Shown: in pieces, positions 1-55,631 of the stretch
Layout: each line of letters begins with the position of its first letter
Position numbering within the stretch: position 1 is the stretch's first letter
From: Gordius albopunctatus
Taxonomy: Eukaryota
Assembly: GCA_964276515.1 (NCBI GenBank)
Contig: OZ193909.1
Span: 16,802,001-16,866,000, forward strand
DNA: 64,000 nucleotides
Direction of reading: 5' to 3'
Program-made: the position numbers and the translations under genes
The notes under the pieces: model-generated
What the model was told of the DNA's origin: nothing
What the model saw: only the letters and a program-made list of their open reading frames with translations
The model's database searches: none

Positions 1-520
1 TTTATATAATTATTTAAACAAAATGGATTTCAAACAAAAACATGTTTTAGACCTTGGATGTGGTTCTGGTTTTTTAGGAATTTTGGCACTTAAAAATAAT
101 GCAGAAGGAGTTACTTTTCAAGATTATAACAAAGATGTTTTGCAAAATTTTACTATGCCCAATATTAAATTGAATATTGATACTATTAAGTATGATAAAT
201 GTATTTTTGTTGCTGGTGATTGGATAAGCATAATTGAAAAGAAGGTGTTTGAGAAAAAATTGGATGTTATCTTAACATCTGAAACAATTTATAATCCTCA
301 GAACAACTTAAAATTATATGAACTATTAAAACATTCTTTGCAAACAAATGGCCAGATATTCATTGCAGCTAAATCACATTACTTTGGCATAGGTGGTAAT
401 GTAAAAAGTTTTTTAGAGTTAATAGACAAAGACAACTATTTTGATTACAATATTTGTTGGAAATCAATTGATGGAGTGCCACGTTTAATTATTCTTTTAA
501 AATGTTCTTTAACAGGATGA
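1..520 (+). CDS. METTL18: Histidine protein methyltransferase METTL18/Hpm1-like, copy 1 (5' part outside window)
   Basis: SAM-binding motif VLDLGCGSG, then FQDYN, GDW, ILTSETIYN and AAKSHYFGIGG, all typical of METTL18/Hpm1. Same protein as the C-terminal part of 47573-48352. Confidence 0.9.
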   Translation, partial: LYNYLNKMDFKQKHVLDLGCGSGFLGILALKNNAEGVTFQDYNKDVLQNFTMPNIKLNIDTIKYDKCIFVAGDWISIIEKKVFEKKLDVILTSETIYNPQNNLKLYELLKHSLQTNGQIFIAAKSHYFGIGGNVKSFLELIDKDNYFDYNICWKSIDGVPRLIILLKCSLTG

Positions 521-3500
521 TGAAAAATTATTTCCATTTTGGAATGAATGATATCATTCTCTTCAAAAATTGGAAGCCTACCACTACTGGAGGTAGTGAA
601 TTAGAATCTATTTTTGTTATAATTAACCCTTGATTACATGTTCTTGCTCAATAAATTTATTTTAAAAATTATTCTGTTTCTTTTTGATTATAATTAATTT
701 TGTGACAAAAACTTTTTTATATATGAATTAATTAATTTAGGGCAGTTCAACGCATCAAAAAATATTTATAAAGATGTTAATCTTTCAATTTTATTTTAGC
801 TTAAATTTCTTGCCACCTCTTTACATCAAATTTTTACACCTTTTATTAAATATTTGAGCATTTATTTTTTGTAATATAGATTTTATAAGGTATATAAGTT
901 GATTATACATTACTATATGATTTAAATAAACCCAACTCGAATATAAAATAAATATTTTTTACAGATTACAAATATAGCTTTTAAATTTCAGCTCATCCTC
1001 CATATCAACAATAATTTTTTTATCATAATTTTAGATTTTATTTTAATATTAAAACTTAAATGAATTTTACTATTATATAGGTAAATCTGATTTTTTTATT
1101 CTATATTTATAAGGTAAATTAATTCAAATATAAAATTTGCCAAAAAGTTTTATTAATAAAAGTTGAATTCAGGTCGGGCCAAAAATGAAAAATTGGTTGG
1201 GCCCGGCCAAAATAAAAAGTCCTGCTTGGGCGAAAATAATTTATTTCCCAGGTCTCTATGCGTAGTACAACTAAAATTATGTTTTATTCCACAGAAACAA
1301 TGCAATTTATGTTTATCCCTCAATCAAAATAAATGTTTTTGAATTATCCTTTAAACTTTTAAAAAGGGACATCTTGCTTGCCAGATGTGAACAAAGCATT
1401 ATTGCTTACATTTATTTTAGCCAGTTTAGGTAAGAAAACTAAAAGCTATATACCTTTAATTTTAAACAATCCCGAGTTTAGAGTGCATGAGTGTATAGTA
1501 GTTGTAAAAAGGACTGCCTTTTCTCTTAGTCGCTTTCCAGCCTTAGTCAAAATTTTAAAAAAAATAGACCAGATTCGCCCGTTAATCAACAAAACCTAGG
1601 CGTTTTTACAACACTAGTTTATAGCAACAAAAGACACTATATACCTGATACACACGAGTTGATGATCAAAATATTATTACAAATGGTAGAAAGACACCTA
1701 ATTGAATTTTTAATGGTTTAACCATAGAGGTTAGAAACTTTTTCATACTACTATTTTTTGGGATTCCTTCTTTATGATAGACTTCTGTGATTTCAAATTT
1801 TAAAATGCTTTTTAAAAAATGAGACGTTATTAATATCTTTGTCAGAATTAAAAATGGAATTCTGTGTGATATGAAAAGGATTTCTTGTTTTGATAAAAAT
1901 GTGAAATAGGGCGAAAATAGGTAAATTATCATTAAACAATGAAACTAAAAATTTAGAAAGTACCTATATTTTACTCAAGATGAAAGTTTTAACTAAGCAC
2001 TATTAATAGCTTCACATATTTCAAGGGCCCGGAATTTTTATATTTTTGATAAAGAACTCAGCTCGGCCCAGAACTTTACGGACCATGGGTAGCTAACTAA
2101 GTGCAGTCTCTACCAGTATTGTAAAAACGACTGGATTGTATTTGGTCGACCTGATTTTAGTCGTTTTACAGCACTAGTCTCTACACTCGTATGCGGTTGT
2201 GATTATTAGTTAGGCAGCGGATTTTAATCCTGAAACTTTTTAGTTTCTGTATCAAGAGGTTTAATAGCATTTAGGTAGGACGTTTTTACTAGAGTCTAAA
2301 AATGCTTAGTTTTGCCTTATTTGCTTCCTCTTCAGATCCCAAATATTATTTATTCTTTTTACATTAGTCTATAGTGTGGTTTTTTAGTTAAAATACAGAG
2401 CTCTTTCTCGGTGTATAAATTGATTTTAAGCCACAGAGGCCCACTACTTTCGTATCAAAATTTTTAATAAAATTCTTGTCATCTACTCCGACAAATTAAC
2501 GTAAAATTTCTCAAATTGTTTTTACAAAGCTCATAAACCGCTATTGTCTTCACTTAAGACTTTCCATAAATATATGAGTTTGCCTGCAAGAAAGTTTCAA
2601 AATAATTTTTGCGTGTTAACGCCTGAAGCAAAGATTTTTAGGGTGCGCGATTCGAAGCAAAAATTTAGGACATTAATTTATTAAGTGTGTTCTATATAAT
2701 GCATATGTTTGGCTTTTTTATAATTGACTTGATAGAACAAATTAAAAATAATATATATTTCCCTATTATCAACTCAAAGCATTTGTAATTGATGCTCGAA
2801 TTTTCGTTTCGCGCTCATCACGAATGCCCCACTAAATTGTTGGTTTGGTCCTTTAACAGCCCATCTCTTAATAACGAATTGATTGGGGTAAATTTAATAG
2901 CAAGTAGAGGCAGCAGCGGGCCGACTTTTTAAATTTAAAGCAAAAATTAATAAATATATTTCCATTTCACGTCGTTCGCTGCTAAATTAGGCTGGGCTTT
3001 AGAACTAATCAGATACGAAGGTAGTCCTAGCAAGTATTCTTGTAAAAGTTATTTGTTAAAATTTTTTGTTATTGTTAATTCGTCTTCCTGTTTTTGGACC
3101 AAAATCGGGACTATTGAGTCAGTAAAGAAGTTAAGTATGGCTAAATTAAATTGTGATACAGCTGCGTGTAAATGTTAATTTATAAGGTTGAATTAATTCC
3201 ATTATCAATTCACGCGATAAAGGAATCGAATGCTCTTCGTAGTGCTGATTTGAGATTTTTATTATTAATCAAATTTTAGCCATAACTTTAATAAATTGCA
3301 AAAAAATTTTGGATTTATAGGAGGTTGGGGGTGGGCGCCTCTTCCTGCCTCCCCCCTTAGCTAACTTCAGGCTAATAATAATTTTGAATATATACCATTA
3401 TTTTGGTAGATATTGCCTCTTCGTAATTTTTTATATGATTAAATAACCCTCAACTTTACGGTAGAATTTGTGGGTGCTTGCGTGGCCATCATGTTAGCGG

Positions 3501-5199
3501 GCGTGGTCCACGAAGCCCTGAGGCATGGGCGGGTTCGGTTGACTCATTATTCGCGTTGTTTATGCGCCGTCGTTGCCGTGACAACCGCCTCCGACCCCGG
3601 CGGGCGTGAAGATTCTACCTCTCCCTTAACTCCGGTCGGAACCGCCTCTCATACGGTCAGCTGTTGTGATCGATCAGCTGATGACTGCGTAAGGGGCAAA
3701 ACGCCGTCTTTCCCCTACGTAACTTACGCACCAACCGGACTAGGATCTTACGCGCCTTTCGATGGGTACTACGCTATGTATTTTGGTGTTATTTAAGAAT
3801 TTTAAAGTCTGCCTCCTGAAATTCTAAAGTTCTTAAATAAATATTCTACGCAACAGAGTAGTTTTTATTAATAATTTGTTGAGTTCGCACCATGGGCTTA
3901 GCCAGGTTTTGGATAAGGGGGGGGGGCGAAAACTGTTTAAGCCCAATTAGGGGGGGGGCAAAACATTATTTTTTAATTATTAAGGGTTTCTGTATTGAAA
4001 AATATTTTCTTTTTATTTAGCCTTGTCCCCCCCCCTTGGCTACGCCCATGGTTCACACACTAGATAAGCTTACGAGCATGCGTCAATGATTTAAAATTTT
4101 ATCACAACCTTGGCCTTTGTCGTGTTTAAAAAAATAACTCGATAGGTCTGTTCCATAAAAGCGCCAGTATCCATGTTAATGGTTTAAAAGGGATCATAAC
4201 AATGGTCATGGGTCCATTAATTACTATCGATTCAATCGCTGTGCAAAAAAACTATTTGAATCTTTAACAGCGAAAGTTTTATATATACATAATTTGAAAT
4301 TGATATATTTTTGATTTATTAAAAATTTGACACGTTGCACTTAAAATCTAAATTTGCATTTCTTTTTAATGAGTTATGGACTCAAATATTAATTAAAGAA
4401 TTTATTGACCTTGTTTTTCAAATTGGAATATAAATGTGCTGTATTATTAAATATCGCGAAATAAATTGAAACATCATTTTTTACTTTTTAGCTATTAAAA
4501 TCAATCAAAAGTCCCCGCATTCTCGCGATGATTTGACTTTTTGACCTTTGACAAATGGTCCGAGTGAAGAATAAAAAAGCAGACGATTTTCAATAAGCAA
4601 ATGTCTTAATTTACATTCCCTTATTTAATTATTTGATTTACCAAATATACCATTATTTATTAATTTTAATATAATGTACATGAAACATTACTTATTAAAA
4701 ATTTTTTCGGTGACTTTAATGAAACAAGAATATTTAAAGTCACTGTAACTCATCCATGGGCGTAGCCAGCGTTGGAATTAGAGGGGGGCAACAATGTTTT
4801 AGGGAGGGGAAAAATGATCATTTGTTGAAATTTTAGCCAAATTTTTGGATTTAGAGGGGGTAAGCCGCCCTTCACTGCCCCCCCTCTTTGCTACGCCCAT
4901 ACAGTCATCCATGAAAACCGTATAAATTAATGCCTAGACTTGGTCAATCAAGAAAATGGCGACCTTACCCATCATATTACATAGCGCTAGGACAAACTGT
5001 GCTGTACGCCCTACACACGACGCTCAGTTTTGGACTCATGTTGATATTCATGACTTTCAACGCTTACCTTTGCGGCTCCGTTATAGCCGGGCTCACTTTA
5101 GGCTACTTCATTTTCGTAGAAATTTTACCGGGCCGACTTATAGCTGGGTCTGATGTCATAACCACTCTGCAGACCATGGATCAACCATGTTGTCACTAA
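516..5199 (+). CDS. Ctr/SLC31 copper transporter paralog A, copy 1 (exons 516-592, 3465-3765, 4938-5199; exon 1 outside window)
   Basis: Exon 516-592 encodes MMKNYFHFGMNDIILFKNWKPTTTG (Ctr N-terminal FHFG/ILF..W motif). Exon 3465-3765 carries TM1 (EFVGACVAIMLAGVVHEAL). Exon 4938-5199 carries MxxxM (LMLIFMTFN), GxxxG (GLTLG) and C-terminal CCH. GT-AG junctions are phase-consistent (1, then 2); an alternative phase-2 donor lies at 3778. Confidence 0.85.
3891..4050. mobile_element. hAT-type MITE (CATGGGCGTAGCCAG family)
   Basis: TIRs catgggcttagcca/tggctacgcccatg; 8-bp TSD gttcgcac/gttcacac. Confidence 0.75.
4755..4901. mobile_element. hAT-type MITE (CATGGGCGTAGCCAG family)
   Basis: TIRs catgggcgtagc/gctacgcccat; degenerate TSD ending tcatc; lies just upstream of the last Ctr exon. 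Confidence 0.7.
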
Positions 5200-5275
5200 C
5201 TTCATAGCGAGAAAAGCAGTAAATGGTAAATGAATAAATTTTTGTTATTTAAATACAAATGTTTTTGTATAATTG

Positions 5276-5417
5276 CATGGGGCAACCAAAAGGGGGGGGG
5301 GCAGGGCTCTCTCGCCCTCCCTCTAAATCCAAAAATTTATTAAAATTGTGGCTTAAATTTCAAAAAATGTTTGTTTTGCCCCCGCCCCCTCTAATTCCAA
5401 TGCTGGCTACGTCCATG
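5276..5417. mobile_element. hAT-type MITE (CATGGGCGTAGCCAG family, opposite orientation)
   Basis: catgggg...ggctacgtccatg; TSD tataattg/tataagtg; internal sequence resembles the reverse complement of 4755-4901. Confidence 0.65.
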
Positions 5418-5626
5418 TATAAGTGCAGTCCTCTCTATGGCGGTGGGCAGAATATTGTAACCGATTTGGATAGATTTTACTTGGGATAGCTTATTTTGAT
5501 TTCGTCATATACCTTATTTGGGTTGCATCTGAGAATTTATTGAGTTTCGTTGAAATGGAAATGACGCAATAGGGAGGGAGATGTTGGTTAGCAGAACAGG
5601 TTAAATATTTACATGTAAAGTATATA

Positions 5627-5915
5627 CAGTCAAAACCGTTTAATTGCAAAGGCTTGAGCCTGAAATTTTATTTCGCTATTAACCGATATTTCGCGAATAA
5701 ACGATGGGGAAAAAAGTATATGTACCATATTTTATATAATTATCTGGTTGATTTAAGGACTCGAAAATGTTTGTGAATATCCGATATTGTACTATCAAGC
5801 GATTTGTCAATAAACGATGTTTTTATTAATATTATCGTTTAAAAAAAATGGTGGTTAACTTCACGATTAAAAGATTTTTGCGATAATCCGATTTGCGATT
5901 AAAAAGTTTCGACTG
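5627..5915. mobile_element. Tc1/mariner (pogo/Tigger-like) MITE
   Basis: TA|cagtcaaaac ... gtttcgactg|TA termini with TA target site; internal repeated cgat motifs. Confidence 0.65.
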
Positions 5916-7010
5916 TATATACACTAACGTCTGCTCCTTATTTTGTTTGAAATAATGAACGCAGTTTTTATTATTTTCTACAATTTGTAGATTTTATATT
6001 TAAATCGTTATTCAAAAGGTTTTATTTGCAATCATGCACTTTATTAGGTTGCTAATTCATTTATATTTATTGTTTATTAAATTAGCCCATAGCACTAGTT
6101 TTTAATTTTTTATATTTGTAATATCTTAGTTTAGAAATCATGACATTAGTTTTCAAATGCAGGGTTTTAAACTTTGATGATAACTATAAAATTGAATTAT
6201 AAAAGAACGTTTCTTATTTATTTTTTGACGATGTAGAAATTTTTTGAATCTATTATATTTGGAACTATTTAGAATTGAAGAACAATTTTGTACTCTTCCA
6301 TACAAAAGTCCTATGTAGCCTTTTCACAAAGCATGGTCACTATGCAAACATTTTCATCAATAAACCATATCTTCTTATATACAAATAGATATAAATAATA
6401 TGTATACTATTTTTTGAATTTTGCATCTTTTAATCATGTATTGAACGTTATTGATATAACCACATAGGCCGAAAGTTCAAATTTATAACCGCTCATTCTT
6501 GTTGGATATAAATATTTATATACTATTATACATTTTAAAGACTGTTCCTTTTTTTAAATATACGAATCTCACATTTTATCAAGCCTTGGCTCCGCGGCGA
6601 CTAGGTCTTGTTAGTTAGCATTACACAACGTGCCTTAGCATTTATATTGATTTATACCGTCCATTCATATCATGCATTGATAAAATCTTTTATAAATTAT
6701 CATAGATACAAATATATAGTTTTATCAAAAGAATTAATATTTGGAAAAACATTTACTACATATCTTTTAAGTTAAACGAGTCTATTATTATTTATTTTGC
6801 AAATTGTTGTGTGTTATTGCAAAATTCTGTTTTTATGGAGAAAAAAATATAAATTGAAGTTTAAAGACTTAAAAGTTTAGTCTGGGCAGAAAATTGCTTT
6901 AATAAATTTGTTTGCTTTTATGACTGAGTTAGTTGAAGTTTTATCTCATTAAAAATGTAAATTTTTAATTACTTTCTCCTGATTAAATTTATTTTTTCAG
7001 GTGATTAATT

Positions 7011-7795
7011 AAAGGCCCTCGTGGGAAGGGGAAGGGAAGGGGGAACTAAACTCATCTATACTCCGTATAAAAGTAGCATATTTGCTATGCAATTTATGGG
7101 CGAGAATAGGGGGGGGGGGTATTAAATGCAAAATGATTAGTTAATTATTTATAACAATTTTCCATCACTTTGGCCAGTGGTGATCTTTTATAATGGTTAG
7201 CAGACAGCCAAATAACTAACCTATAATTATAATGAAGAAAAAAATTGATTTTAATCTCACTTTGGCCAATGATCATTTTTTCATTGTAGAGTAGCCAGCG
7301 GACCGCCAAAAAGCCATATTATCAATGGTATTAACAAGAACAATATATTAATTTAATTTAAAAAAAATAAAAATCTTGTCCTCTCCGGGTATCGAACCAG
7401 CAATTAAGAATCTGCCCTCGCCAGGATTCGAACCCACATCAGTAGAGGCATAGGCTTTTGTAGGAGGGGGGAGCACAGGGACCCATATCAGTAGAGGCAT
7501 AGGCCCTTGTAAGGGGGGGGCATAGGTAATTATCAATGTTAACCTATACGACTTCAAAAACGTAAAAAAGAATTTCGAATCACAATTTGGCCAATGGTCA
7601 TTTTTTTATTGGTCAGTAGCCAGCGGAGGACCAAAAAGCCATATTATCAATGGTATTAACAAGAACAATATATTAATTTAATTTAAAAAAAATTTGTCCT
7701 GTCCGGGTATCGAACCAGCAAGTCAGAAAGTTGAAAGGAAGGACAACGGACGGAGGGACAACAAAAAGCGAGCCCATAAATTGTATAGCAATTAA
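7011..7795 (-). mobile_element. DINE-1/HINE-like non-autonomous Helentron element with tRNA B-box-like cassettes
   Basis: 20-bp subterminal inverted repeat ttgctatgcaatttatgggc (7082-7101) / gcccataaattgtatagcaa (7772-7791); GGAC microsatellite next to one IR; internal repeats; homologous to 23311-24522. Confidence 0.6.
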
Positions 7796-7799
7796 AAAT

Positions 7800-10700
7800 G
7801 TGTTAGCAAGCAGCCCTTCCCTTTTTATATACACTTTAAGTTGCTAAAAGAATTAGTTCCAAGTATATAAAATTTGTTGATTTTTGAAATCCCTATGCCC
7901 CTTGTGCTCCAGAAATATCTCATTAAACAAAAAGAATTGTTTTTTACAACATGGCCCTTTAACAAATAAATGCCCCTAATCAGGGAAGCTCGCTCCCCCA
8001 GACATTATATGTCCACCATCTACCTTAATATTGGATGATAACATTAATTTTAGCCCTTCTGGTACAGATATTCTTAATCTAATACCTCATCAAACCTACT
8101 ATACCACAAATGAAAAAAATTACATGACATGGAGCAGAGCCTTTTTATCTCAAGCATTCCCACCAACCATATCCAGAATTCGAAGGGGGCCCGGGCGTGC
8201 ATGCAACAGTTTTTAATAAACTTACTTAACAATATTATTTCTCTCCCTCAGAACCTATCCTATTGGGAGAAATTATTTAAATTCTCTTTTTACATTTTAT
8301 CTATTCCTCAAGAAAAGGAAGCAAATATCATTCATAATATTAAACAATTAGTTTTAAATTTTGACAGTCAAAACAGCCCTCCAGCATATAACATGGATAG
8401 AAAGGAATCCCAAATATTAACCCATAAACAAAAAGCGAATAAAATCTCTATAAAAATTCACTCATTCAACATCAAAAGCGCAATGAAATACCTTGAAGAA
8501 GACAATTCATTTTTGAATCCTTCACAAAAATCATATGAAGAAATGGAGTCTATCGTCTACTTACCGATCGCCCTCGCAACCTTCAGATATTTCTTTTAAG
8601 TCATCAGACATTCGAGATGCCATCTTATCCTTTCCTCTATGGATTCTGCAGGTGGTCTCGACGGCATAAAACTAATTTTTTTAAAAGATCTTATAACAAT
8701 TGATAATAATAACTCCTCCATCTTATAGACTTACTCACCAAATTTTTTAACCTTTTAGTCAATGGGAGTATATCTAAAGAAATAACGCCCATAGTCTTTG
8801 GAGCTAAGCTTTTAGCTATTAGGAAGGCCGACAATTCAGCCAGGCCTATCGGCGGTGTCTTCCGAAGAATTATTTCTAAATTAATTTTCTCGGCGATCAA
8901 ACCAATATTGACCCCTACTTTAATTCCGCATCCACCAGGCTTCGGGGTCAAAGGAGGGTGCGAGATAGCTACCCATGCCGCACGCTTAACCCTGGAACAC
9001 CTCCTTCTAGGTGACTCCTTTATAAAACTGGATTTTAAAAATGCTTTCAAGAGCATTCGCCGCACTGCTTTCATTAATGAATTTATAAATCTATTTCCCC
9101 AATACACCAACTACATCATTTTAAGTTACGGATGTCCTTCGATTTTGAAATTTGGAGAATTCTTCCTTGCATCCGCAGAAGGGATCCAACAAGGCGACCA
9201 CCTAGGCCCCCCTTTATTCTGCTTGGCTATAAATTACCTAATTAACGAAATTAACAAACATTGTAAACTCACCCTTAATGTCTGGTATCTAGATGACGCC
9301 ACTCTTGTTGGCACCCCTGACAACCTAGTCCAAGCACTAGAAGTAATACAAGCTTTCTTCCCCACTTTAAACTTATGTTTAAACGCTTCTAAAAGTGAAA
9401 TATATTCTGACTTGGATACCATTCATCCAAAGTTTTTTGACTTTGCCAAAATTAAAAAAGACAATATCTATGTTTTAGGCGCACCTATAGGAGGCCCTGA
9501 ATGCCTCAAAAAAATTTTAGACAAAAATCTCTCTTCTTTAAAAACCAAATTAGACATTTTTAAATCTATACCCTCTCATCATTCCTTTTTCATTATAAAA
9601 AATTATTACAACATTAGCAAAATTTTATTCTGCTTCCGCTCCACACAAGCTTTTTTATTTAAAGAAGTTTTACACGACTATGAAAACTTTTTTAAATCCA
9701 CTCTTGAATCAATTTTAAATATTTCTTTTAACACCAATACTTGGCTTCAAGCCACACTTCCCACAAAATCCGGTGGTCTAGGTATTCGCTCACCATCTGC
9801 GATTTCCCTAGCCGCGTTTATTTCTTCCTCTCTATCTTTTAAACATCATATTAACGACCTTGTCCCATTCCCACTTAATCCCTCCATAAATCAAGCCCTA
9901 TCCTTATGGAATGAGAACGTCAACGTAGGAGCTAATATACCACAATCATACGCTCAAAAAGATTTGGATGCAAGTTTGGTGTAGCGGTCCGTTGCTTACC
10001 TTCTCTCGCCATGCGACGCCAAACAGCATTGCAATCTTAGGTCATTGCCTTTCGACCAATCAGCCATGAATGGCTTGAAGCTTACCCTAGTAAGTTTTCG
10101 GGAATGTCTTTAGAGAACCCTACACTATCCTACAATATAGCCCTCCGCTTGGGCTGTAAATACACGTCTCCATACCCCTGCCGGCTTTGTAATTCACTTG
10201 TAGATGAGGAAGCGCGTCACCCTCTGTATTGTAAATTTAACAAAAGCCGGTATGGTAGGCACCAAAAAATAAATACACTGCTTCAAGCTGCCCTCAAACG
10301 GGCAAAAGTTCCTTCGATCCTTGAACCTTCAGATCCCTCTCTCGAAGTGCGGATGCGTCCGGACTGTTCGTCACTTATCCCATGGGACAAAGGCCTTTTC
10401 CTAAAATGGGACTACATCTGTATTGACATATTTTCCCCCTCCAACGATACTCACGACCCCCTAGGATCGGCAGAGCATCGGAAATCCTTAAATTATTCAG
10501 CTTTATCCCAAACCTCGATTTTTATTCCTATCGTCTCATCGTGCTCAGGATTTGGGAAGAGCGCATTAATTTTTTTTAAAGAACTCAATAAACGCTCGCC
10601 CCCTTGTAAAATATCGAATAGTTTTTTACTACGACAATCAATTGCCATCGCGATCGCTAAATCTAATTTTTATTCTTTGATAGATTCAATGCCCATTCTC

Positions 10701-10819
10701 AAAGATGAAGAAACGGATATTGAGTTTTAATCATTTTTTTATAAATGTTTTTGTTCTTATATCTTTTTAACAATTCCGCTCAATATTTAATACTTTTTAT
10801 TTAATAAAGCAAAAAAAAA
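7800..10819 (+). mobile_element. Degenerate CRE-like non-LTR retrotransposon (RT plus restriction-like endonuclease), copy 1
   Basis: N-terminal Zn motif CPLCSRN..QHGP...C (~7895-7975); RT motifs RPIGG.FRR, LDFKNAF, GIQQGDHLGP, WYLDD, GGLGIR; CCHC motif CRLC..H..C; RH..IN and RPD..WD endonuclease. AATAAA at 10803 and A-tail at 10811-10819. ORF is broken by stops and frameshifts; 5' end approximate. Confidence 0.85.
8908..9984 (+). pseudogene. Reverse transcriptase ORF fragment of the CRE-like element
   Basis: LDFKNAF, QQGD, YLDD; premature TAG at 9982-9984 and a frame change before the endonuclease ORF (10104-10730). Confidence 0.85.
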
Positions 10820-11269
10820 TTGTGATTTGTTGATTTAGATATTACTAAAAAATGAAACAAAAACTATAGTGAATTTGTCATATCTAATCACAACAGCTTG
10901 AATTTATTCTTTATTTAAAATATTTTTCCATTAAATATAAAATGGTTTTCTCGCTACCTTTCGTATGAAAATAAAAGAACTCGTTCAAATAACCATTTTA
11001 AATTTAATATATATTTAACTCAAGTATATATCTGTTTAAATTTTTGCAAAACTTTATGCATCATATATAAGATTTAATTATATTTATTAGCATAAATTAA
11101 AAGGAACGACAAACTTAAATTAAATAATATTTAGGAGAACTTAACATTAAACAATAAGACTAATATAATAGTTAGTTTTGTATCGTCATAGCCTAAAATC
11201 TACAGTAATAAAATGAAGAGATAGTAGAAAAACACCTTAAAATTTGGTTTAATGAAGTCGTTTACAATC

Positions 11270-11870
11270 TATCAAACCCCTGATCAAAAGTGTTGGAATG
11301 GCCCCCTGTCCGAGTGCCTCTTAAAGTCTCTTATTAATGGCGCTTCGGCAGAGGAACTTCCAGCGCTTAGGAGCTTAGCTCCACGCTCAGGTCACGAATG
11401 ACCCGAAGCTTTCCCAAGTCGTAACCTCGGTCTACTATTATCGAACAACGATATCCGAGGCCTAAGATTATGACAAAATAGTTGCTGAAAAAATTTCTTA
11501 ACTTTGCAATAATTCCCTAAAATCGAATGGCCATCATGGTCTACACTGTAATAGCAACAAAGCCCGGTATCTTTGACATACCGTGGTTAACAAACTTATA
11601 ATATCCCCTCTATTCTTGAACTCAGGCCTCTGTGAAGATAGCAAACAACCCGTTGGCCAATCTATAGGCGTTTGGGAAAAAGGACTCATTTTAGCATGGA
11701 ACTATAGATGTACTGACGTATTCGCCCCATCTTATCACAACAAATATCCCCTGTCCACTGGAAATTTTCAATTACTCTGAAATTAACAATACTATAATTT
11801 TTGGTTCCATTGCGACAACCACCCTAACAACCTTTGGCCTCCAAGCCTTACAAATTAAGAAAATAGGGAA
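11270..11870 (+). pseudogene. Second, older fragment of a related CRE-like retroelement (C-terminal endonuclease region)
   Basis: HE*PEAFPSRNLGLLLSNNDIR..LRL parallels HEWLEAYPSKFSGMSLEN..LRLG; WEKGLILAWNYRCTDVFAPS parallels WDKGLFLKWDYICIDIFSPS of the neighbouring element. Confidence 0.6.
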
Positions 11871-12326
11871 AGTTGTAATATAAAAAAACTTCGTAAAAAT
11901 AGCAAAAAATCACGAAACGTGGAAACGTTTCTAAAAGCGCGCGTTATATTTATTTAAGTATATGGTGATGTATTACGGTCTCTAGAATATTTATTGGTTA
12001 CAGATTTATATATTGTAAAAAAAACGGGCGTAGTTGAGTAAAAAATTGAGACACAAATGACAAAGCAATCATGGAAAAAAGTTTAACGCGAAAAGTAGCA
12101 CCATAACGATAAATAAGTACAAACAACGCAGTATAAATAATCCGCTAGATGGCGCCAACCAAATTAAAAAACATGGTTCCCGCTGTCGTAGTGTGATAAA
12201 AAGTGTTTACAAACCATCTACAATGCTAAGGCAATAATCTGGCCAAATTTGGTGGCAATCGGTTGAGAACTTTAAAAGTTATTAGCGTACAAAAAAACGT
12301 GACTTAGATTTATATATATATAGATT
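11870..12326 (-). mobile_element. Possible non-autonomous Helitron fragment
   Basis: Minus strand begins TCTATATATATATAAATC, followed by an aaccgattgccaccaaatttgg motif like those of arthropod non-autonomous Helitrons. No 3' CTAG/hairpin end was found. Confidence 0.4.
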
Positions 12327-13462
12327 ATTTGAAAAAATCGTTGAAAAGGATTATTTTTTCATTGTTTTTTAAGCTGCTAAAATAATGAAACATAGCCCCG
12401 ACAATTTTAAATTTAAAACACTTTACTTTACGAAGGAGAAAATCAACTTTTTTATTTCCGTTTTTTCCTTTATCTCACATAAATATTAATAATATATTTT
12501 TACAATAATTTTGAGCGATTTCCTTTTCAGAGCTACATTCCCCGTGATGAAATTTGATATTATCATAAACCGGTATTAAATTGAAATTTGAGCAAATAAT
12601 CTATGTTAAACCTTTTTAATGGCGCTGCTCTTAAAATTATGAAAAATAAAATATTTCAAAATTTATTAATTCGTAACACATCTCGAATTAAAATTAATTC
12701 GTCTTAGCCGGTTTAATTTTAGCAACCTTGCTTTTATTTTTGAACATTGAATTATTCATCTTAATATATCTCCAAAACGGAAAATTGGTTTAGTTTGCTC
12801 TTATTAAATTTTAGATACAAGGTTGAAATAAACAAAATTACAACTTTGTGGAATGAACTTAATTTTTCCGAGAAAAGGCCTCACTTAAATTTAATTGGGG
12901 AAAAATCTGTTTTGTTTTATCCTGGTGTTTATTTTTGTAAGGCGTTATTTTAGTTTGTTTTCGTCTTAGATAATTTATGATGCAATTAACTATCATCAAT
13001 GTACTTAATTTTTCCAAGAAACTACCATAAATTTGTGTTTATCAATTACTATTTATATAATAATACAACTCCATAAAACATTTATATCGAATTTTCAACT
13101 ACTATTTGTACACATTTAAAATGAATTCCCTATTAATCCTAATGATATTTTACCCTTATGTTAAATCCCTTTGTAAGTGAAATTATTTTAAAATCTTATA
13201 TATATTATATATTCTTTTACCTTGTATGTTCCACCTTAATTTTAAGATATAAATGGGCACTACAATAAAGGTAAAAAGTTGATTTCAATTAATATTCATT
13301 TATGCCTTTAAGGTTTAACACTATATCACCATAGTAATTTCGCCCGATATATGGTAATAGATAGGGTCGGATATACGAACCCTATATTTTATTTAACTAT
13401 AGAAAATACGACAGATAAAGATTTGGAAGTAATTTAACATAAACCCTATAAATCAAAGCACA

Positions 13463-13634
13463 CCTGGGCGTAGTGCCCCCCCCTCTAAATCCAAAATTTT
13501 GTTGAAATTTATGGAAATTCCAACTAAAATTTCAAAAAAAGCTCATTCTGACCGTCCTTAAATCATTATTGCCCTGCCTAAACCATTTTTTCCCCCACCC
13601 CCCTCTAATTCCAATGCTGGCTACTACGCCCATG
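13463..13634. mobile_element. hAT-type MITE (CATGGGCGTAG family)
   Basis: cctgggcgtag...ctacgcccatg; TSD aaagcaca/aaagcata. Confidence 0.7.
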
Positions 13635-14706
13635 AAAGCATATATAAATTATTGTATTACATTTTTTATTAAGTGTTTGTGTAAATTATGATGATGACTA
13701 TAAAATTTGTGTATAGGTACCGGCATTCAACGGTATTATTTCCTTGAATCATTATTCAGCAAAACAATTCACAATTATAATTGTCCCTGTTGTTGATGGT
13801 AAACCCAGGCTAGATTTAAGAATGTCGACCAATACCAAAATAAGTAAAAAAACTATCTATCATACAAATAGATATAATAATACTTATTTGTTGGATGTAA
13901 AATCGTATTTTATTGCATTCTTTTTTTAAAATCTTTTTGTAAATTAACTCGGTAAAGTAATGATGTAACCTCCATGGTTTTCAGGGGGCACAGAGCGTCA
14001 GTTGCCCCCTCAAATCCATTTTAAAAAGTAGTAAGTTGCTTTAAAAATGGCAGAAATCAGATCGTGTTTTTATAAAAGGCACAAACAAATTATGTTAATA
14101 CACAAACGGAATGCGTTTACAGTGGCGAAAATGAGGGGTCTGCTTCTTAATTAATAACTAAATTAAATGGGTTAAAATATTATATTTTAATTACAGCAAA
14201 GACTTTAAGACACTTATAAAAACATCGAAACATAATATATAATACATCCAATTTTTAGATTTAATTTTTGACAAAATGCGTTGTAAAATTTCCAAATATG
14301 ATTGTGAAAATTGCTATAAAAAACTTGTTTGGACATTTATTTCCCTTGAAAACACCAGACAGCCTCAGGAATTAGATAACTAAGCGATTTAATCATTTAT
14401 CTTATTTGTCTGAAAGTTTCTGCTAGAACCCATCACGGTTTGATAACTAAATTGCCTGCCAAGGCCAGCCAGAACCCTTTAATTGTCCAATTCACTAATG
14501 CTGTCTGAACAGCCGGGCCCAAAATGACGATTTTCAATTTCAAGCATTAATTTTGTCTTCTTTTCAAAAAATTTTGATCTGATTCTAGAATTTATATAAA
14601 TATAGAGGTGACAAAAAATAGTATATTATATAAAAAATCGCACTATGGTGCTCACCCAGGCCTACTTAAAAACCTATTTAGAACGGTAGTCTGACCGACC
14701 CCTTAC

Positions 14707-16154
14707 TAGTGGTGGGAAAAAGTTAGGCGTGAGTCACGCCAAGGTCAGGTTAGAGGTTCCTTGAAAACCTCTAACCTCTTTTAAAGCGCTAAAACCTGCC
14801 TCAAGGTTAGAGGTCAAAATTAACCTAAAAACCTCGAGGTCAATTAGAAGCTTAGAGCTTACGTCAGAGCGTAAAATTAACCTAAACGCTTAGGTTAATA
14901 AATATTGACCTAGCCTAAAGGTTTAGATTAATTTAACTCACCTAAGGTCAATTTTCTTTTATATACTGTAAAATTTCAATTCAACTGCGGTCTTTTAGCA
15001 CCTTGTCTGCTATATTTTTTACATATATAATAAATAATAGAAATTTTACAATTTATTCCAATTAAAAGTAAGGCAAATTAAACTAAAAATATAATATAAT
15101 TTTAATCTATTTCAATTCTTTAATTTTTAAGAAAAAATTGCGATTTGGGTTTTTAATACATATCTACCTCTATCGAGTGTTTTATTTTTAATTGCCACCA
15201 TTTTGTAACATATTCGTTTTGTGTGCAATGCCATGTAGCGTGCGTGGCGTGACTGACTGTGACTGATGATAGTTTGCTAATTTTTATTTATTTGCTAAGT
15301 ATTTAAATTATATGCTAAGCATTATTCAAATATATTATGCTAAGTATTTAAATATATGTTAGGTTAATAAATAAAAAATTATCGAAATCATTGCAAATAA
15401 AACTTTGCCCTTTTTATCTTTTTTTAATACTCACCTGTTTGATTAAAATTTCTAGCTTAAAATTAAAAAAATAAGCATTTTAATTAAAAAACTTAGAAGA
15501 TCAAAATAAAAACTTATCAATTTAATGAAAAAAACTAAGAATTTTAAAGTGATGGTAGTCTGTTATGATGATGTTAGTTGCGTCGGGTTAGTTAATAGTG
15601 TTGAGTGGGGCCGTGGGGTCACGCTACATGGCACACAAAAGAAATATGTTACAAAATGGTGGCAATTAAAAATAAAACACTCGATAGAGGTAGGTATGTA
15701 TTAAAAACACAAATCGCAATTTTTTCTTAAAAATTAAAGAATTGAAATAGATTAAAATTATATTATATTTTTAGTTTAATTTGCCTTACTTTTAATTGGA
15801 ATAAATTGTAAAATTTCTATTATTTATTATATATGTAAAAAATATAGCAGACAAGGTGCTAAAAGACCGCAGTTGAATTGAAATTTTACAGTATATAAAA
15901 GAAAATTGACCTTAGGTGAATTAAATTAACCTAAACCTTTAGGCTAGGTCAATATTTATTAACCTAAGCGTTTAGGTTAATTTTACGCTCTGACCTAAGC
16001 TCTAAGCTTCTAATTGACCTCGAGGTTTTTAGGTTAATTTTGACCTCTAACCTTGAGGCAGGTTTTAGCGTTTCTAAAGAGGTCAAGGTTTTTTGGAAAG
16101 CCTAACCTAACCTCTTAGGTTGCGTCGGCAAAACCTGAGGTTTTCCCATCACTA
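14707..16154. mobile_element. Non-autonomous hAT-type foldback element (long palindrome)
   Basis: TIR tagtggtgggaaaa/ttttcccatcacta; perfect 8-bp TSD ccccttac (14699-14706, 16155-16162); internal inverted arms ~14785-15242 and ~15620-16071 around a ~380-bp loop. Confidence 0.85.
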
Positions 16155-42659: not shown

Positions 42660-43708
42660 CCTTGATATACGCTTGCGTGGGCATTTTCGTCTTTTCGGTG
42701 CTGTACGAAGGCCTTAAAGTATTCCGAGAGCACCTCATGTCTCATCCACCCTTCGCCAATGCCCGCAAGGGTCTCGGTTCGCCCGGACGTCACAAAAAAA
42801 ATTGTTGCGCCTCCGGGGCTGGAACCCTCCACGACGAAGGGGTTAGCCCTTACGCCAAGATGAACGACGTCGAGTCTCGCACCCCGACCCACTTCGCCAT
42901 CGAACGCGGCTTTAAATCGTGCGATTGTCGATCTAGGTCAGTAAACATTGCTAATAAGGAAAGTATATAAAGAGTTTACTCAAGCCATAAACTTATTAAC
43001 GCGTTTCCTGGGGAAATTTAGTTTTTAATCGAAACCACTGTAATCAGCTATTCAATTAAAAATTATAAAAATGTATTAGTTTTGTTAAAATTATTAATGA
43101 ATTTGTAGTCAAAATCTTTGGTCTCCAACTAAAGAAGGCTATTTTAGAGCAAACACTAAACAATTATTTTAACTAAACACGAAAATGTATTAATTTGATT
43201 AAAATTAAAAACAAATTTTTATTTAAACTTAGGTTTACAGCTAAAAAGACCCTTTTTAGACCAATATGTATCGCGACATCATTAGTTTTATGGAACAATA
43301 CACCCCCCCCTCCCACCCCTTTTGGGATGCAAATCAAACTTAAATTATAATTGTCATGTATTTTGTAAATAAAAATCTCGTACACATTCTTCTGCAGACA
43401 ATTCCGCTCTTTTAAATTCCTAATTTGCTCGGTATGCCAAACCTAAAAGTTTAGAGCCTTTTGCAGAGGATAATTCCTAGTTTTTACTTCTTTTCCATTG
43501 CAGTCCCGCCTTTTCCATCCTGGATCACGGTTTGCAATCCATCCTACACATCATACAAACCGGACTCGGGTTCATGTTGATGCTCATCTTCATGACTTTC
43601 AACGTTTGGATGTGCTTCTCCCTTTTGCTGGGCGCCGGGGTCGGTTACTTTTGTTTTGCTTGGAAACGCAAAATCGCCATTGTCGACGTCACTCAACACT
43701 GCAATTGA
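42660..43708 (+). CDS. SLC31A1: Ctr1/SLC31A1-like copper transporter paralog B (exons 42660-42936, 43504-43708; 5' exons not found)
   Basis: TM1 LIYACVGIFVFSVLYEGLKVFRE. Last exon HGLQSILHIIQTGLGFMLMLIFMTFNVWMCFSLLLGAGVGYFCFAWKRKIAIVDVTQHCN* closely parallels the CTR1 C-terminus. Phase-2 junction AG|gtcagt..ttgcag|T; AATAAA at ~43783. Confidence 0.85.
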
Positions 43709-46700: not shown

Positions 46701-47545
46701 GCTTCACAAGTTTTATAAAATTTTCAGCAAAACTTCATTTCGTTCTAAAAATTCAAGAATATCATAGATGCCTGAGATTATACCTATATTGAAACGAGTC
46801 TTGTGATAACTATTGGACTCAAAAAACTTTTCATAGGAAATTGACAGACTTAAAACTAGGCCTTAAAACTTATCATTAAATTTTTATAAAAAATATATAA
46901 TTTTTAGATTTAAGGTATTTACAAGTGCCTTTTATGCTGGATGTAATTATTTTTGTTATTTAAATAATTTCATTTACAATTAAGGATATTTTATTGCCAA
47001 TGGGTTTATATTTATGATGAAAAATATTTTAATGTCAATGGGGGGGGGGGGTCCCGTATAGGCCAATAAAACAATAGACCGCCGAAAAGCTAATAATTTT
47101 TTAGCAAGTATAGAAACCGCCATTTTGTTGGAAATTGTAACCAAAAAACATAATTCAACATTATTTATTGTCTTATTCTACATATTTTTTAAATTTATAG
47201 ATTAAGCTAATAGTCTTATTTTATTTCTTAATGAATATATGGTATAAAAGTGGAAATATACCTGTGGTTAAGTTTTTCCTTAAAAATGGCAGCTATAATA
47301 ATGTCGAAATGATTTTAATAGTAAAAATCAGCTGTTCAGCAGTCTATGTTTTTATTAGTCTATGGTATGTATGTATAAGCCCCGATGACAAACAAGAGCT
47401 TAGCTAAATCGTCAAGCTAAGATTGAGTCCCATCTGACACCATAGGTGCATCTCGGGCCTTATTAGTCTATGGGTTCCCCTTATTATTCGCCCCACGACG
47501 ATCATTTGTATCGCTACGCCGCTGAAGTGGAATCGGACACTTGAA

Positions 47546-50500
47546 ATGCACCACGATATGGAGTAACATACAATGTCTTTTAAATTCAATTTTTTTGATA
47601 ATAACACACCGAAAACCGTAAATAATAAAATAACAACTAAATATAATGCCGAAATAATTGATTTTTATTGTGACAATAATTTGGAAATGTCACTAACGTC
47701 ATCAGTTGGTCTGAAGTATTTGCCATCATATAATTATTCAAATTTTTCTAAAATACATCCTGGGATAGCCATTTCTGACATAATTCCTGATGAGTATGAA
47801 GGTGGATATAAGATTTGGGAATGCACCTATGATTTATATAATTATTTAAACAAAATGGATTTCAAACAAAAACATGTTTTAGACCTTGGATGTGGTTCTG
47901 GTTTTTTAGGAATTTTGGCACTTAAAAATAATGCAGAAGGAGTTACTTTTCAAGATTATAACAAAGATGTTTTGCAAAATTTTACTATGCCCAATATTAA
48001 ATTGAATATTGATACTATTAAGTATGATAAATGTATTTTTGTTGCTGGTGATTGGATAAGCATAATTGAAAAGAAGGTGTTTGAGAAAAAATTGGATGTT
48101 ATCTTAACATCTGAAACAATTTATAATCCTCAGAACAACTTAAAATTATATGAACTATTAAAACATTCTTTGCAAACAAATGGCCAGATATTTATTGCAG
48201 CTAAATCACATTACTTTGGCATAGGTGGTAATGTAAAAAGTTTTTTAGAGTTAATAGACAAAGACAACTATTTTGATTACAATATTTGTTGGAAATCAAT
48301 TGATGGAGTGCCACGTTTAATTATTCTTTTAAAATGTTCTTTAACAGGATGATGAAAAATTATTTCCATTTTGGAATGAATGATATCATTCTCTTCAAAA
48401 ATTGGAAGCCTACCACTACTGGAGGTAGTGAATTAGAATCTATTTTTGTTATAATTAACCCTTGATTACATGTTCTTGCTCAATAAATTTATTTTAAAAA
48501 TTATTCTGTTTCTTTTTGATTATAATTAATTTTGTGACAAAAACTTTTTTATATATGAATTAATTAATTTAGGGCAGTTCAACGCATCAAAAAATATTTA
48601 TAAAGATGTTAATCTTTCAATTTTATTTTAGCTTAAATTTCTTGCCACCTCTTTACATCAAATTTTTACACCTTTTATTAAATATTTGAGCATTTATTTT
48701 TTGTAATATAGATTTTATAAGGTATATAAGTTGATTATACATTACTATATGATTTAAATAAACCCAACTCGAATATAAAATAAATATTTTTTACAGATTA
48801 CAAATATAGCTTTTAAATTTCAGCTCATCCTCCATATCAACAATAATTTTTTTATCATAATTTTAGATTTTATTTTAATATTAAAACTTAAATGAATTTT
48901 ACTATTATATAGGTAAATCTGATTTTTTTATTCTATATTTATAAGGTAAATTAATTCAAATATAAAATTTGCCAAAAAGTTTTATTAATAAAAGTTGAAT
49001 TCAGGTCGGGCCAAAAATGAAAAATTGGTTGGGCCCGGCCAAAATAAAAAGTCCTGCTTGGGCGAAAATAATTTATTTCCCAGGTCTCTATGCGTAGTAC
49101 AACTAAAATTATGTTTTATTCCACAGAAACAATGCAATTTATGTTTATCCCTCAATCAAAATAAATGTTTTTGAATTATCCTTTAAACTTTTAAAAAGGG
49201 ACATCTTGCTTGCCAGATGTGAACAAAGCATTATTGCTTACATTTATTTTAGCCAGTTTAGGTAAGAAAACTAAAAGCTATATACCTTTAATTTTAAACA
49301 ATCCCGAGTTTAGAGTGCATGAGTGTATAGTAGTTGTAAAAAGGACTGCCTTTTCTCTTAGTCGCTTTCCAGCCTTAGTCAAAATTTTAAAAAAAATAGA
49401 CCAGATTCGCCCGTTAATCAACAAAACCTAGGCGTTTTTACAACACTAGTTTATAGCAACAAAAGACACTATATACCTGATACACACGAGTTGATGATCA
49501 AAATATTATTACAAATGGTAGAAAGACACCTAATTGAATTTTTAATGGTTTAACCATAGAGGTTAGAAACTTTTTCATACTACTATTTTTTGGGATTCCT
49601 TCTTTATGATAGACTTCTGTGATTTCAAATTTTAAAATGCTTTTTAAAAAATGAGACGTTATTAATATCTTTGTCAGAATTAAAAATGGAATTCTGTGTG
49701 ATATGAAAAGGATTTCTTGTTTTGATAAAAATGTGAAATAGGGCGAAAATAGGTAAATTATCATTAAACAATGAAACTAAAAATTTAGAAAGTACCTATA
49801 TTTTACTCAAGATGAAAGTTTTAACTAAGCACTATTAATAGCTTCACATATTTCAAGGGCCCGGAATTTTTATATTTTTGATAAAGAACTCAGCTCGGCC
49901 CAGAACTTTACGGACCATGGGTAGCTAACTAAGTGCAGTCTCTACCAGTATTGTAAAAACGACTGGATTGTATTTGGTCGACCTGATTTTAGTCGTTTTA
50001 CAGCACTAGTCTCTACACTCGTATGCGGTTGTGATTATTAGTTAGGCAGCGGATTTTAATCCTGAAACTTTTTAGTTTCTGTATCAAGAGGTTTAATAGC
50101 ATTTAGGTAGGACGTTTTTACTAGAGTCTAAAAATGCTTAGTTTTGCCTTATTTGCTTCCTCTTCAGATCCCAAATATTATTTATTCTTTTTACATTAGT
50201 CTATAGTGTGGTTTTTTAGTTAAAATACAGAGCTCTTTCTCGGTGTATAAATTGATTTTAAGCCACAGAGGCCCACTACTTTCGTATCAAAATTTTTAAT
50301 AAAATTCTTGTCATCTACTCCGACAAATTAACGTAAAATTTCTCAAATTGTTTTTACAAAGCTCATAAACCGCTATTGTCTTCACTTAAGACTTTCCATA
50401 AATATATGAGTTTGCCTGCAAGAAAGTTTCAAAATAATTTTTGCGTGTTAACGCCTGAAGCAAAGATTTTTAGGGTGCGCGATTCGAAGCAAAAATTTAG

Positions 50501-53031
50501 GACATTAATTTATTAAGTGTGTTCTATATAATGCATATGTTTGGCTTTTTTATAATTGACTTGATAGAACAAATTAAAAATAATATATATTTCCCTATTA
50601 TCAACTCAAAGCATTTGTAATTGATGCTCGAATTTTCGTTTCGCGCTCATCACGAATGCCCCACTAAATTGTTGGTTTGGTCCTTTAACAGCCCATCTCT
50701 TAATAACGAATTGATTGGGGTAAATTTAATAGCAAGTAGAGGCAGCAGCGGGCCGACTTTTTAAATTTAAAGCAAAAATTAATAAATATATTTCCATTTC
50801 ACGTCGTTCGCTGCTAAATTAGGCTGGGCTTTAGAACTAATCAGATACGAAGGTAGTCCTAGCAAGTATTCTTGTAAAAGTTATTTGTTAAAATTTTTTG
50901 TTATTGTTAATTCGTCTTCCTGTTTTTGGACCAAAATCGGGACTATTGAGTCAGTAAAGAAGTTAAGTATGGCTAAATTAAATTGTGATACAGCTGCGTG
51001 TAAATGTTAATTTATAAGGTTGAATTAATTCCATTATCAATTCACGCGATAAAGGAATCGAATGCTCTTCGTAGTGCTGATTTGAGATTTTTATTATTAA
51101 TCAAATTTTAGCCATAACTTTAATAAATTGCAAAAAAATTTTGGATTTATAGGAGGTTGGGGGTGGGCGCCTCTTCCTGCCTCCCCCCTTAGCTAACTTC
51201 AGGCTAATAATAATTTTGAATATATACCATTATTTTGGTAGATATTGCCTCTTCGTAATTTTTTATATGATTAAATAACCCTCAACTTTACGGTAGAATT
51301 TGTGGGTGCTTGCGTGGCCATCATGTTAGCGGGCGTGGTCCACGAAGCCCTGAGGCATGGGCGGGTTCGGTTGACTCATTATTCGCGTTGTTTATGCGCC
51401 GTCGTTGCCGTGACAACCGCCTCCGACCCCGGCGGGCGTGAAGATTCTACCTCTCCCTTAACTCCGGTCGGAACCGCCTCTCATACGGTCAGCTGTTGTG
51501 ATCGATCAGCTGATGACTGCGTAAGGGGCAAAACGCCGTCTTTCCCCTACGTAACTTACGCACCAACCGGACTAGGATCTTACGCGCCTTTCGATGGGTA
51601 CTACGCTATGTATTTTGGTGTTATTTAAGAATTTTAAAGTCTGCCTCCTGAAATTCTAAAGTTCTTAAATAAATATTCTACGCAACAGAGTAGTTTTTAT
51701 TAATAATTTGTTGAGTTCGCACCATGGGCTTAGCCAGGTTTTGGATAAGGGGGGGGGGCGAAAACTGTTTAAGCCCAATTAGGGGGGGGGCAAAACATTA
51801 TTTTTTAATTATTAAGGGTTTCTGTATTGAAAAATATTTTCTTTTTATTTAGCCTTGTCCCCCCCCCTTGGCTACGCCCATGGTTCACACACTAGATAAG
51901 CTTACGAGCATGCGTCAATGATTTAAAATTTTATCACAACCTTGGCCTTTGTCGTGTTTAAAAAAATAACTCGATAGGTCTGTTCCATAAAAGCGCCAGT
52001 ATCCATGTTAATGGTTTAAAAGGGATCATAACAATGGTCATGGGTCCATTAATTACTATCGATTCAATCGCTGTGCAAAAAAACTATTTGAATCTTTAAC
52101 AGCGAAAGTTTTATATATACATAATTTGAAATTGATATATTTTTGATTTATTAAAAATTTGACACGTTGCACTTAAAATCTAAATTTGCATTTCTTTTTA
52201 ATGAGTTATGGACTCAAATATTAATTAAAGAATTTATTGACCTTGTTTTTCAAATTGGAATATAAATGTGCTGTATTATTAAATATCGCGAAATAAATTG
52301 AAACATCATTTTTTACTTTTTAGCTATTAAAATCAATCAAAAGTCCCCGCATTCTCGCGATGATTTGACTTTTTGACCTTTGACAAATGGTCCGAGTGAA
52401 GAATAAAAAAGCAGACGATTTTCAATAAGCAAATGTCTTAATTTACATTCCCTTATTTAATTATTTGATTTACCAAATATACCATTATTTATTAATTTTA
52501 ATATAATGTACATGAAACATTACTTATTAAAAATTTTTTCGGTGACTTTAATGAAACAAGAATATTTAAAGTCACTGTAACTCATCCATGGGCGTAGCCA
52601 GCGTTGGAATTAGAGGGGGGCAACAATGTTTTAGGGAGGGGAAAAATGATCATTTGTTGAAATTTTAGCCAAATTTTTGGATTTAGAGGGGGTAAGCCGC
52701 CCTTCACTGCCCCCCCTCTTTGCTACGCCCATACAGTCATCCATGAAAACCGTATAAATTAATGCCTAGACTTGGTCAATCAAGAAAATGGCGACCTTAC
52801 CCATCATATTACATAGCGCTAGGACAAACTGTGCTGTACGCCCTACACACGACGCTCAGTTTTGGACTCATGTTGATATTCATGACTTTCAACGCTTACC
52901 TTTGCGGCTCCGTTATAGCCGGGCTCACTTTAGGCTACTTCATTTTCGTAGAAATTTTACCGGGCCGACTTATAGCTGGGTCTGATGTCATAACCACTCT
53001 GCAGACCATGGATCAACCATGTTGTCACTAA
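47546..53031 (+). CDS. Ctr/SLC31 copper transporter paralog A, complete copy (exons 47546-47562, 48348-48424, 51297-51597, 52770-53031; 218 aa)
   Basis: Spliced ORF is 657 nt and open throughout: MHHDMEMMKNYFHFG... TM1 ... LMLIFMTFN ... GLTLG ... CCH*. Exon 1 is inferred from its His/Met content and phase match. Confidence 0.8.
47573..48352 (+). CDS. METTL18: Histidine protein methyltransferase METTL18/Hpm1-like, complete intronless copy (259 aa)
   Basis: SDIIP..YEGGYKIWECT.DL, VLDLGCGSG, FQDYN, GDW, ILTSETIYN, AAK.HYFG.GG. Confidence 0.92.
   Translation: MSFKFNFFDNNTPKTVNNKITTKYNAEIIDFYCDNNLEMSLTSSVGLKYLPSYNYSNFSKIHPGIAISDIIPDEYEGGYKIWECTYDLYNYLNKMDFKQKHVLDLGCGSGFLGILALKNNAEGVTFQDYNKDVLQNFTMPNIKLNIDTIKYDKCIFVAGDWISIIEKKVFEKKLDVILTSETIYNPQNNLKLYELLKHSLQTNGQIFIAAKSHYFGIGGNVKSFLELIDKDNYFDYNICWKSIDGVPRLIILLKCSLTG
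48482..48487 (+). promoter_or_regulatory. Candidate poly(A) signal for the METTL18 mRNA inside Ctr intron 2 (copy 1: 650-655)
   Basis: First AATAAA after the METTL18 stop (130 nt downstream), followed by T-rich sequence. The region is AT-rich, so this is weak alone. Confidence 0.4.
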
Positions 53032-55627: not shown

Positions 55628-55631
55628 AAAT

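Follow-up and report, generated by a model that had tools for sequence, protein, structure and literature searches.

The window (the whole 64,000-nt stretch of DNA analysed here) contains an intronless open reading frame (ORF) for the histidine methyltransferase METTL18/Hpm1 that fills almost all of the predicted first intron of CtrB, a copper transporter gene on the same strand. The sequence arrangement is confirmed, and intron 1 itself is predicted. Judged from the sequence, the two genes probably share a promoter, with splicing giving rise to the transporter, and retention of the intron combined with intronic polyadenylation giving rise to METTL18 behind a 6-codon upstream ORF (uORF). If the splice is true, the genes are nested unusually tightly: a retained intron would encode a conserved enzyme in its entirety, the coding exon of the host would double as a uORF, and the last codons of the enzyme would double as the splice acceptor. 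In that case two horsehair-worm lineages have probably both retained the arrangement.

Table 1. Features of the METTL18/CtrB locus and its surroundings in the window.
Feature	Position	Strand	Sequence or evidence
Locus repeated in part: 3' portion of METTL18, CtrB exons 2-4	1..14777	+	99.99% identical to 47833-62609 (self-BLAST, one mismatch)
CtrA paralog, last two exons (42660-42936, 43504-43708)	42660..43708	+	81% and 39% identity to Gordionus CtrA; PF04145
GC-rich unique leader, likely shared promoter/5' UTR	47461..47545	+	GC step; genomic repeat just upstream
CtrB exon 1, predicted coding part (MHHDM + GA)	47546..47562	+	sequence ATGCACCACGATATGGA
CtrB intron 1, predicted, 785 nt, GT..AG	47563..48347	+	donor GGA/GTAACA, acceptor ttctttaacag
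METTL18/Hpm1 ORF, intronless, 259 aa, GC 27%	47573..48352	+	ORF, homology
CtrB exon 2 (G ATG ATG AAA ... GGA G)	48348..48424	+	16/20 identical to Gordionus CtrB residues 1-20; PF04145 E=6e-4
Candidate intronic polyadenylation signal AATAAA for METTL18 mRNA	48482..48487	+	followed by U-rich sequence
CtrB exon 3 with TM1 and loop; putative 3' end	51297..51597	+	tblastn with Gordionus CtrB E=8e-6; frame
CtrB exon 4, MxxxM, GxxxG, C-terminal CCH	52785..53031 (or acceptor 52770)	+	PF04145 E=2.8e-15

Identity of the two genes and arrangement of the locus

By homology, the ORF within predicted intron 1 is a METTL18/Hpm1 histidine methyltransferase. It matches PF10294 (Methyltransf_16) with an E value of 1.2e-14 (54.9 bits, cut-off 21), and its closest solved relative is PDB 4rfq, 'Histidine protein methyltransferase 1 homolog' (E=5e-39), with METTL21B at 2e-7. 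Homologs at E<=1e-20 number 1004, and the named ones among the best 120 are mostly histidine protein methyltransferase 1. In the alignment, the start MSFKFNF, which includes the N-terminal F.F.F motif, and the C-terminal end align with the ends of the family, and the core is intact, with the SAM-binding DxGxG, YEGG.KIWE, FQDYN, SETIY and K.HYFG all present. DxGxG is described as essential in human METTL18, the substrate of which is RPL3 His245, methylated at tau-N (PMC9177149). The GC3 of the ORF (0.21, against 0.43-0.58 in Ctr exons 3-4) reflects an intron-like base composition, to which little weight is given because CtrB exon 2 is also AT-rich.

On the same kind of evidence the host gene, CtrB, is a Ctr/SLC31 copper transporter. 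Exons 2 and 4 match PF04145, and the hallmarks of the family found in the window are the MxxxM of TM2 (MLIFM), the GxxxG of TM3 (GLTLG) and the C-terminal Cys/His tail (CCH). Exon 4 alone, used as a query, found no homolog among longer proteins. CtrA, a CTR1-like paralog ending in VDVTQHCN, is represented by its last two exons; its His-rich 5' exon or exons were absent from the window by motif and tblastn searches, with residues 1-122 of CtrA from the horsehair worm Gordionus sp. unmatched.

METTL18 coding sequence makes up 775 of the 785 nt of predicted intron 1 (99%). Its last 5 nt lie within CtrB exon 2 in another frame, where the last codon, GGA (48347-48349), and the TGA (48350-48352) overlap the Met codons ATG 48349 and ATG 48352. 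Read unspliced, exon 1 is a 6-codon uORF (MHHDME and a stop) that ends at 47566, 6 nt ahead of the METTL18 ATG. When exon 1 is joined to exons 2-4, 12 of the possible donor/acceptor pairs for intron 3 leave the frame open as far as the TAA at 53031. An exon 3 end at 51597 with an exon 4 start at 52785 or 52770 was chosen because the phase (2) matches that of the intron in the paralog CtrA, giving a CtrB of 213 or 218 aa; the ten other choices are also open. The sequence-only reading had named the two proteins as METTL18 and a Ctr transporter, and PF10294, 4rfq and PF04145 bear this out. It had also placed exon 1 at 47546-47562, GTAACA at 47563 and the end of a 785-nt intron at 48347, with METTL18 overlapping the two Met codons of CtrB exon 2 and the spliced frame open to the Ctr stop; all of this is found in the sequence, the open frame holding for the predicted exon joins.

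Contigs from both sequencing runs span the METTL18 region unbroken (47441-48733 in run X1 and 47499-48187 in run X2), and the overlap is therefore no assembly error. Introns and exons of the locus are evenly covered in the two runs, as DNA would be.

The predicted first exon of CtrB

CtrB has a His/Met-rich extracellular N-terminus only with exon 1 spliced on, and the annotated Gordionus ortholog is without one. Among 279 proteins found in Ctr searches, 162 have a Met start and the first motif, the motif match being crude on fragments, and only 9 of these 162 begin 6 or fewer residues from the F.F motif. In homologs with long N-termini, at least two His occur in the first 6 residues in 77 of 153, and His3 is present in 67 of 153. 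The peptide MHHDME thus resembles a Ctr N-terminus, as had been proposed. Gordionus CtrA starts MDMEHINHHM and shares DME with MHHDME. It is the sole case of DME in the first 8 residues among 206 full-length Ctr homologs, and DME together with a phase-2 donor arises in about 1 in 10,000 shuffles or fewer. MHHDME is read here as a paralogous first exon that CtrB appears to have retained.

The exon-2 acceptor places YAG one base ahead of an ATG, which is the case for 20 of 1520 ATGs (1.3%), and the 38 nt before it are free of any other AG. Two or more His behind an upstream ATG, together with an open phase-2 donor of the form GTRA, occur in 2 of 1893 stretches of the window, and shuffling the dinucleotides of the leader 20,000 times gave this combination in 0.3-0.8% of cases; with any GT donor allowed, a two-His leader arose in 3-6% of leader shuffles. 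All of these criteria were chosen post hoc with the sequence already seen. At the donor the GC content falls from 48% (preceding 100 nt) to 22%, a step matched by 2.8% of 2032 GT sites; it could simply reflect the passage from a GC-rich 5' UTR into an AT-rich ORF. The donor agrees with the consensus at 4 of 9 positions, with 1164 of 2040 GT sites (57%) equal or better; the donor picked for CtrB exon 3 also scores 4, and other donors score 5-7. The pyrimidine tract of the exon-2 acceptor scores 7/13, and those of the CtrA acceptors 10-11. The leader holds a second His-containing candidate peptide, MGSPYYSPHDDH, with a phase-2 donor after 47507, 76 nt upstream, and such peptides can therefore arise there by chance. 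The GTAACA hexamer does recur at 33006, as a putative donor of the SAP30BP gene, as had been pointed out, but 13 copies of it were counted over both strands in 95,664 nt and the recurrence means little. On balance, the chance that the splice 47562^48348 is real is put at roughly two in three.

The weak donor would also fit a gene that has no exon 1, in which CtrB begins at the double Met as a short, CTR2-like protein, made from its own promoter inside METTL18 or by AUGA termination-reinitiation on a dicistronic mRNA, and MHHDME is a mere METTL18 uORF. Both Gordionus annotations, that of the submitter (BRAKER with RNA-seq; bioRxiv 10.1101/2023.06.26.546503) and RefSeq, place the start of CtrB at MM or M and show no coding exon upstream of it. 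The window CtrB counted from MM has 207-212 aa, against 212 in Gordionus, and the nine homologs mentioned above are equally short at the N-terminus. Drosophila offers precedents in 159 dicistronic pairs and in 18 gene pairs with out-of-frame CDS overlap (PMC4528330). However, a start at the double Met, which is considered unlikely, would reduce four features to coincidences, namely the YAG ahead of the ATG, the matching phase, the leader rich in His and the DME in common with the paralog. Gene finders would be expected to miss a 17-nt exon whose intron contains another gene, and the nested arrangement, if true, would account for the annotators truncating the transporter.

It is less likely still that the acceptor at 48347 is real and is joined to another 5' partner, such as an exon farther away, a spliced leader added by operon-like trans-splicing, or the donor after 47507, which would yield MGSPYYSPHDDHLMMKNYF. 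Trans-splice sites typically have the acceptor right before the AUG, as is the case here, the MM start in Gordionus would fit, and the alternative donor is in phase. However, that donor (TTT/GTATCG) is weaker still and the DME match would go unexplained. The literature searched, with most subscription papers outside the search, does not mention Nematomorpha together with spliced leader and trans-splicing, which is an argument from absence only.

Gordionus orthologs and the repeated segment

METTL18, CtrB and CtrA are each sister to a Gordionus sp. protein in FastTree trees, with support of 0.989 for METTL18 (121 sequences), and of 0.999 for CtrA and 0.977 for CtrB (227 sequences), and the window therefore likely stems from another horsehair worm. 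The Gordionus accessions are consecutive (METTL18, CAK9290137.1; CtrB, CAK9290138.1/139.1; CtrA, CAK9290140.1/141.1) and all lie on one contig of 93,749,283 bp; from the accession numbering alone we infer that the three genes are adjacent, and their order by number differs from that in the window. METTL18 and Ctr lie on different contigs in 4 of 4 other animals with comparable assemblies and matches listed in both searches (Musca vetustissima, Cochliomyia, Saccoglossus and Eupeodes), a comparison that covers the listed Ctr of each animal. Going by these sequences, the METTL18-Ctr pairing is probably conserved in Gordionus.

Gordionus METTL18 likewise starts MSFKFNF, and its C-terminal end is RQIIELSIPSIE, against RLIILLKCSLTG in the window. 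Both have a 12-residue tail past the last motif, which 7 of 97 other homologs share, and the final residues, I-E in Gordionus and T-G in the window, both fit the xYA-GxA codon pair of an acceptor, as do 6 of the 97 (121 homologs, 99 with a recognisable last motif and 22 dropped, less two Gordionus entries). The METTL18 proteins of the two worm lineages are only about 47-50% identical. Gordionus CtrB starts MMKDYFHFG, in line with exon 2 (Table 1). The METTL18/CtrB overlap is, we infer, conserved in Gordionus as well.

The RefSeq model of Gordionus METTL18 starts 37 residues downstream and does not include the MSFKFNF of the submitter's model, which could point to an unusual structure of the RNA near the 5' end of the locus. 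A degenerate scan of JGI metagenomes for the exon-2 start gave one match (L001:2401-3168, MMKNYFHFG). It is a chance match and lies in a bacterial gene for a membrane protein, next to gyrB and a two-component pair.

Part of the locus is present twice in the window (Table 1). Positions 16043-17444 also repeat 62599-64000, the direct repeat (1-17444 against 47833-64000) has a period of 47,832 nt, and an additional 1.27-kb insert bounded by inverted ends (14742-16113) is present in copy 1. The single mismatch in 14.8 kb is synonymous, in METTL18 codon 207, and both runs show only the copy-1 letter. The contig depth of run X1 over unique sequence is flat at about 650-760, with one 521-nt piece at 495, so that depth does not separate real from assembly duplication. 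Concealed in a nest of repeats at 33722-40984 there is probably the junction of a tandem duplication of very recent date, or else of a haplotype or assembly loop; the 47.8-kb repeat is possibly an assembly artefact, and the second copy gives no independent support.

The 5' part of CtrA and the C-terminal motif of SAP30BP are missing on either side of this nest. A C-terminal exon with the SAP30BP-type motif KSKWD is absent from the window, and the CtrA 5' exons were probably cut off by the duplication junction. The order of the genes also bears on exon 1, which might belong to CtrA or be shared with it, in a true order of exon 1, METTL18, CtrB and CtrA with one promoter and three products formed through alternative 3' exon sets, as in unc-60. 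The DME match is to CtrA and not to CtrB, and the Gordionus accessions run METTL18, CtrB, CtrA, compared with CtrA, METTL18, CtrB in the window. Copy 1 of the repeated unit is followed downstream by the CtrA 3' exons, and the window contains no 5' exon belonging to them. However, the CtrA of Gordionus possesses a long N-terminal part rich in His, the transcript would have SAP30BP within it, with no Gordionus accession between CtrB and CtrA, and a duplication junction within the 7-kb nest is a simpler explanation for the two missing parts. An exon 1 of CtrA is thus regarded as very improbable.

For the SAP30BP/HCNGP gene (28716-33200; PF07818) there are two candidate starts that resemble each other, at 28716 (MSYKPPTLISYE) and at 29856 (MTSLKRLVSYGE). 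A DNA transposon at 35725-39647 consists of 671-nt inverted ends, 99% complementary, around a 776-aa ORF, at a depth several-fold above that of unique DNA, and the fragments at 34284-35598 are presumably transposase-like. ORFs at 55946-58562 (and 8114-10730) include a YLDD motif, are broken by stops and are presumably retroelement-like; the first of them begins HDME by coincidence.

Expression of the locus and comparison with known systems

Under the shared-promoter reading preferred here, one promoter in the GC-rich leader would provide a start site common to both mRNAs. Removal of 47563-48347 would produce a CtrB that begins with the His/Met leader MHHDMEMM, and METTL18 would be lost as part of the lariat. 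Skipping of the weak donor together with cleavage in intron 2, possibly directed by the AATAAA at 48482, would produce the METTL18 mRNA, in which exon 1 would act as the uORF and METTL18 would be translated via leaky scanning or reinitiation. METTL18 is intronless, which suggests retroposition, and a processed copy may have been inserted and borrowed the promoter of its host.

No AG is found between 47563 and 47572, from the donor to the METTL18 ATG; METTL18 therefore cannot be spliced onto exon 1, and a METTL18 5' UTR of >27 nt must include the MHHDME uORF. The leader also carries a 24-codon uORF (ATG 47470), which contains the weaker phase-2 GT after 47507, and no stable fold was detected in it relative to shuffles (z=+1.39). 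Two or three upstream AUGs have a purine at -3, and these and the 6-nt spacer would hinder translation of METTL18, as a short spacer after a uORF is unfavourable to reinitiation. AATAAA occurs at 2.3 per kb locally, including once within the METTL18 ORF at 47624, and the candidate signal is weak evidence because the chance of one in any 130 nt here is ~26%. In retained-intron RNA spliced at intron 2, the METTL18 stop lies 72 nt upstream of the junction. A stop well upstream of a junction generally leads to RNA decay, and this RNA is a likely decay target.

The two products had been described as mutually exclusive, which is too strong. RNA that retains intron 1 and is spliced downstream would keep the Ctr ORF from the AUGA overlap, where reinitiation may yield a leaderless Ctr, so that exclusivity is not guaranteed. 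Metal regulation, also suggested from the sequence, finds no support, as no MRE core or MRE cluster was detected near the locus from 45130 to 49312, and the titles and abstract starts of literature on METTL18, RPL3 and copper mention no link between METTL18 and copper transport. The functional tie raised as speculation between His methylation and the His-rich Cu tail is equally unsupported in those titles and abstract starts. A horsehair-worm-wide switch, in which copper status sets intron retention and a His-tailed importer is traded for the histidine methyltransferase of the ribosome with MHHDME as the gating uORF, appears highly doubtful. The pairing of METTL18 and CtrB is most likely an accident of insertion with no copper-related function. 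Without regulation the locus would be a curiosity of genome architecture that adds no new biological principle; if true, it would show a retroposed gene living on a host promoter without a splice site of its own.

A prior description of METTL18 in a Ctr intron was not found in literature on METTL18, nested genes, nematomorph genomes, Ctr1/Ctr2 exon evolution and retrogenes, most subscription papers being outside the search, and the available text of bioRxiv 10.1101/2024.06.11.598342 includes nothing on introns or operons. The predicted locus is like Su(var)3-9/eIF2γ of insects, where a single-exon methyltransferase ORF is located in an intron of an unrelated gene, with a shared promoter and alternative RNA processing (PMC1435931; PMC4528330). 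Like Su(var)3-9, METTL18 would be an intronic methyltransferase on the strand of its host, probably retroposed, using the host promoter and probably conserved across a lineage, with no functional link. However, splicing includes Su(var)3-9 as an alternative exon, and 80 N-terminal residues are shared, whereas METTL18 would be expressed by non-splicing and shares none. Unlike Su(var)3-9, METTL18 would also fill nearly its whole intron, make host exon 1 a uORF and end in host exon 2 in another frame.

In C. elegans, the exon that is shared in unc-17/cha-1 (VAChT/ChAT) and unc-60 is non-coding or contributes the start codon only, the nested gene is provided with an acceptor, and its product and that of the host belong to one pathway or are paralogs (PMC3875643), whereas METTL18 and CtrB have no known pathway link. 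In Drosophila, 130 genes have a promoter and 5' exons in common. Among its shared-5'-exon, dicistronic and multiphasic pairs, the passages of PMC4528330 on these pairs describe no case in which the last codons of a nested gene form the host 3' splice site and the host coding exon 1 is a uORF, though the supplementary lists may include similar cases. An acceptor for the nested ORF itself, the hallmark of shared-promoter nested loci, is absent before the METTL18 ATG. This leaves retention as the only route and would make METTL18/CtrB a variant of the shared-start loci, in which the nested gene is expressed by intron retention, the host exon serves as a uORF and the last codons serve as the acceptor.
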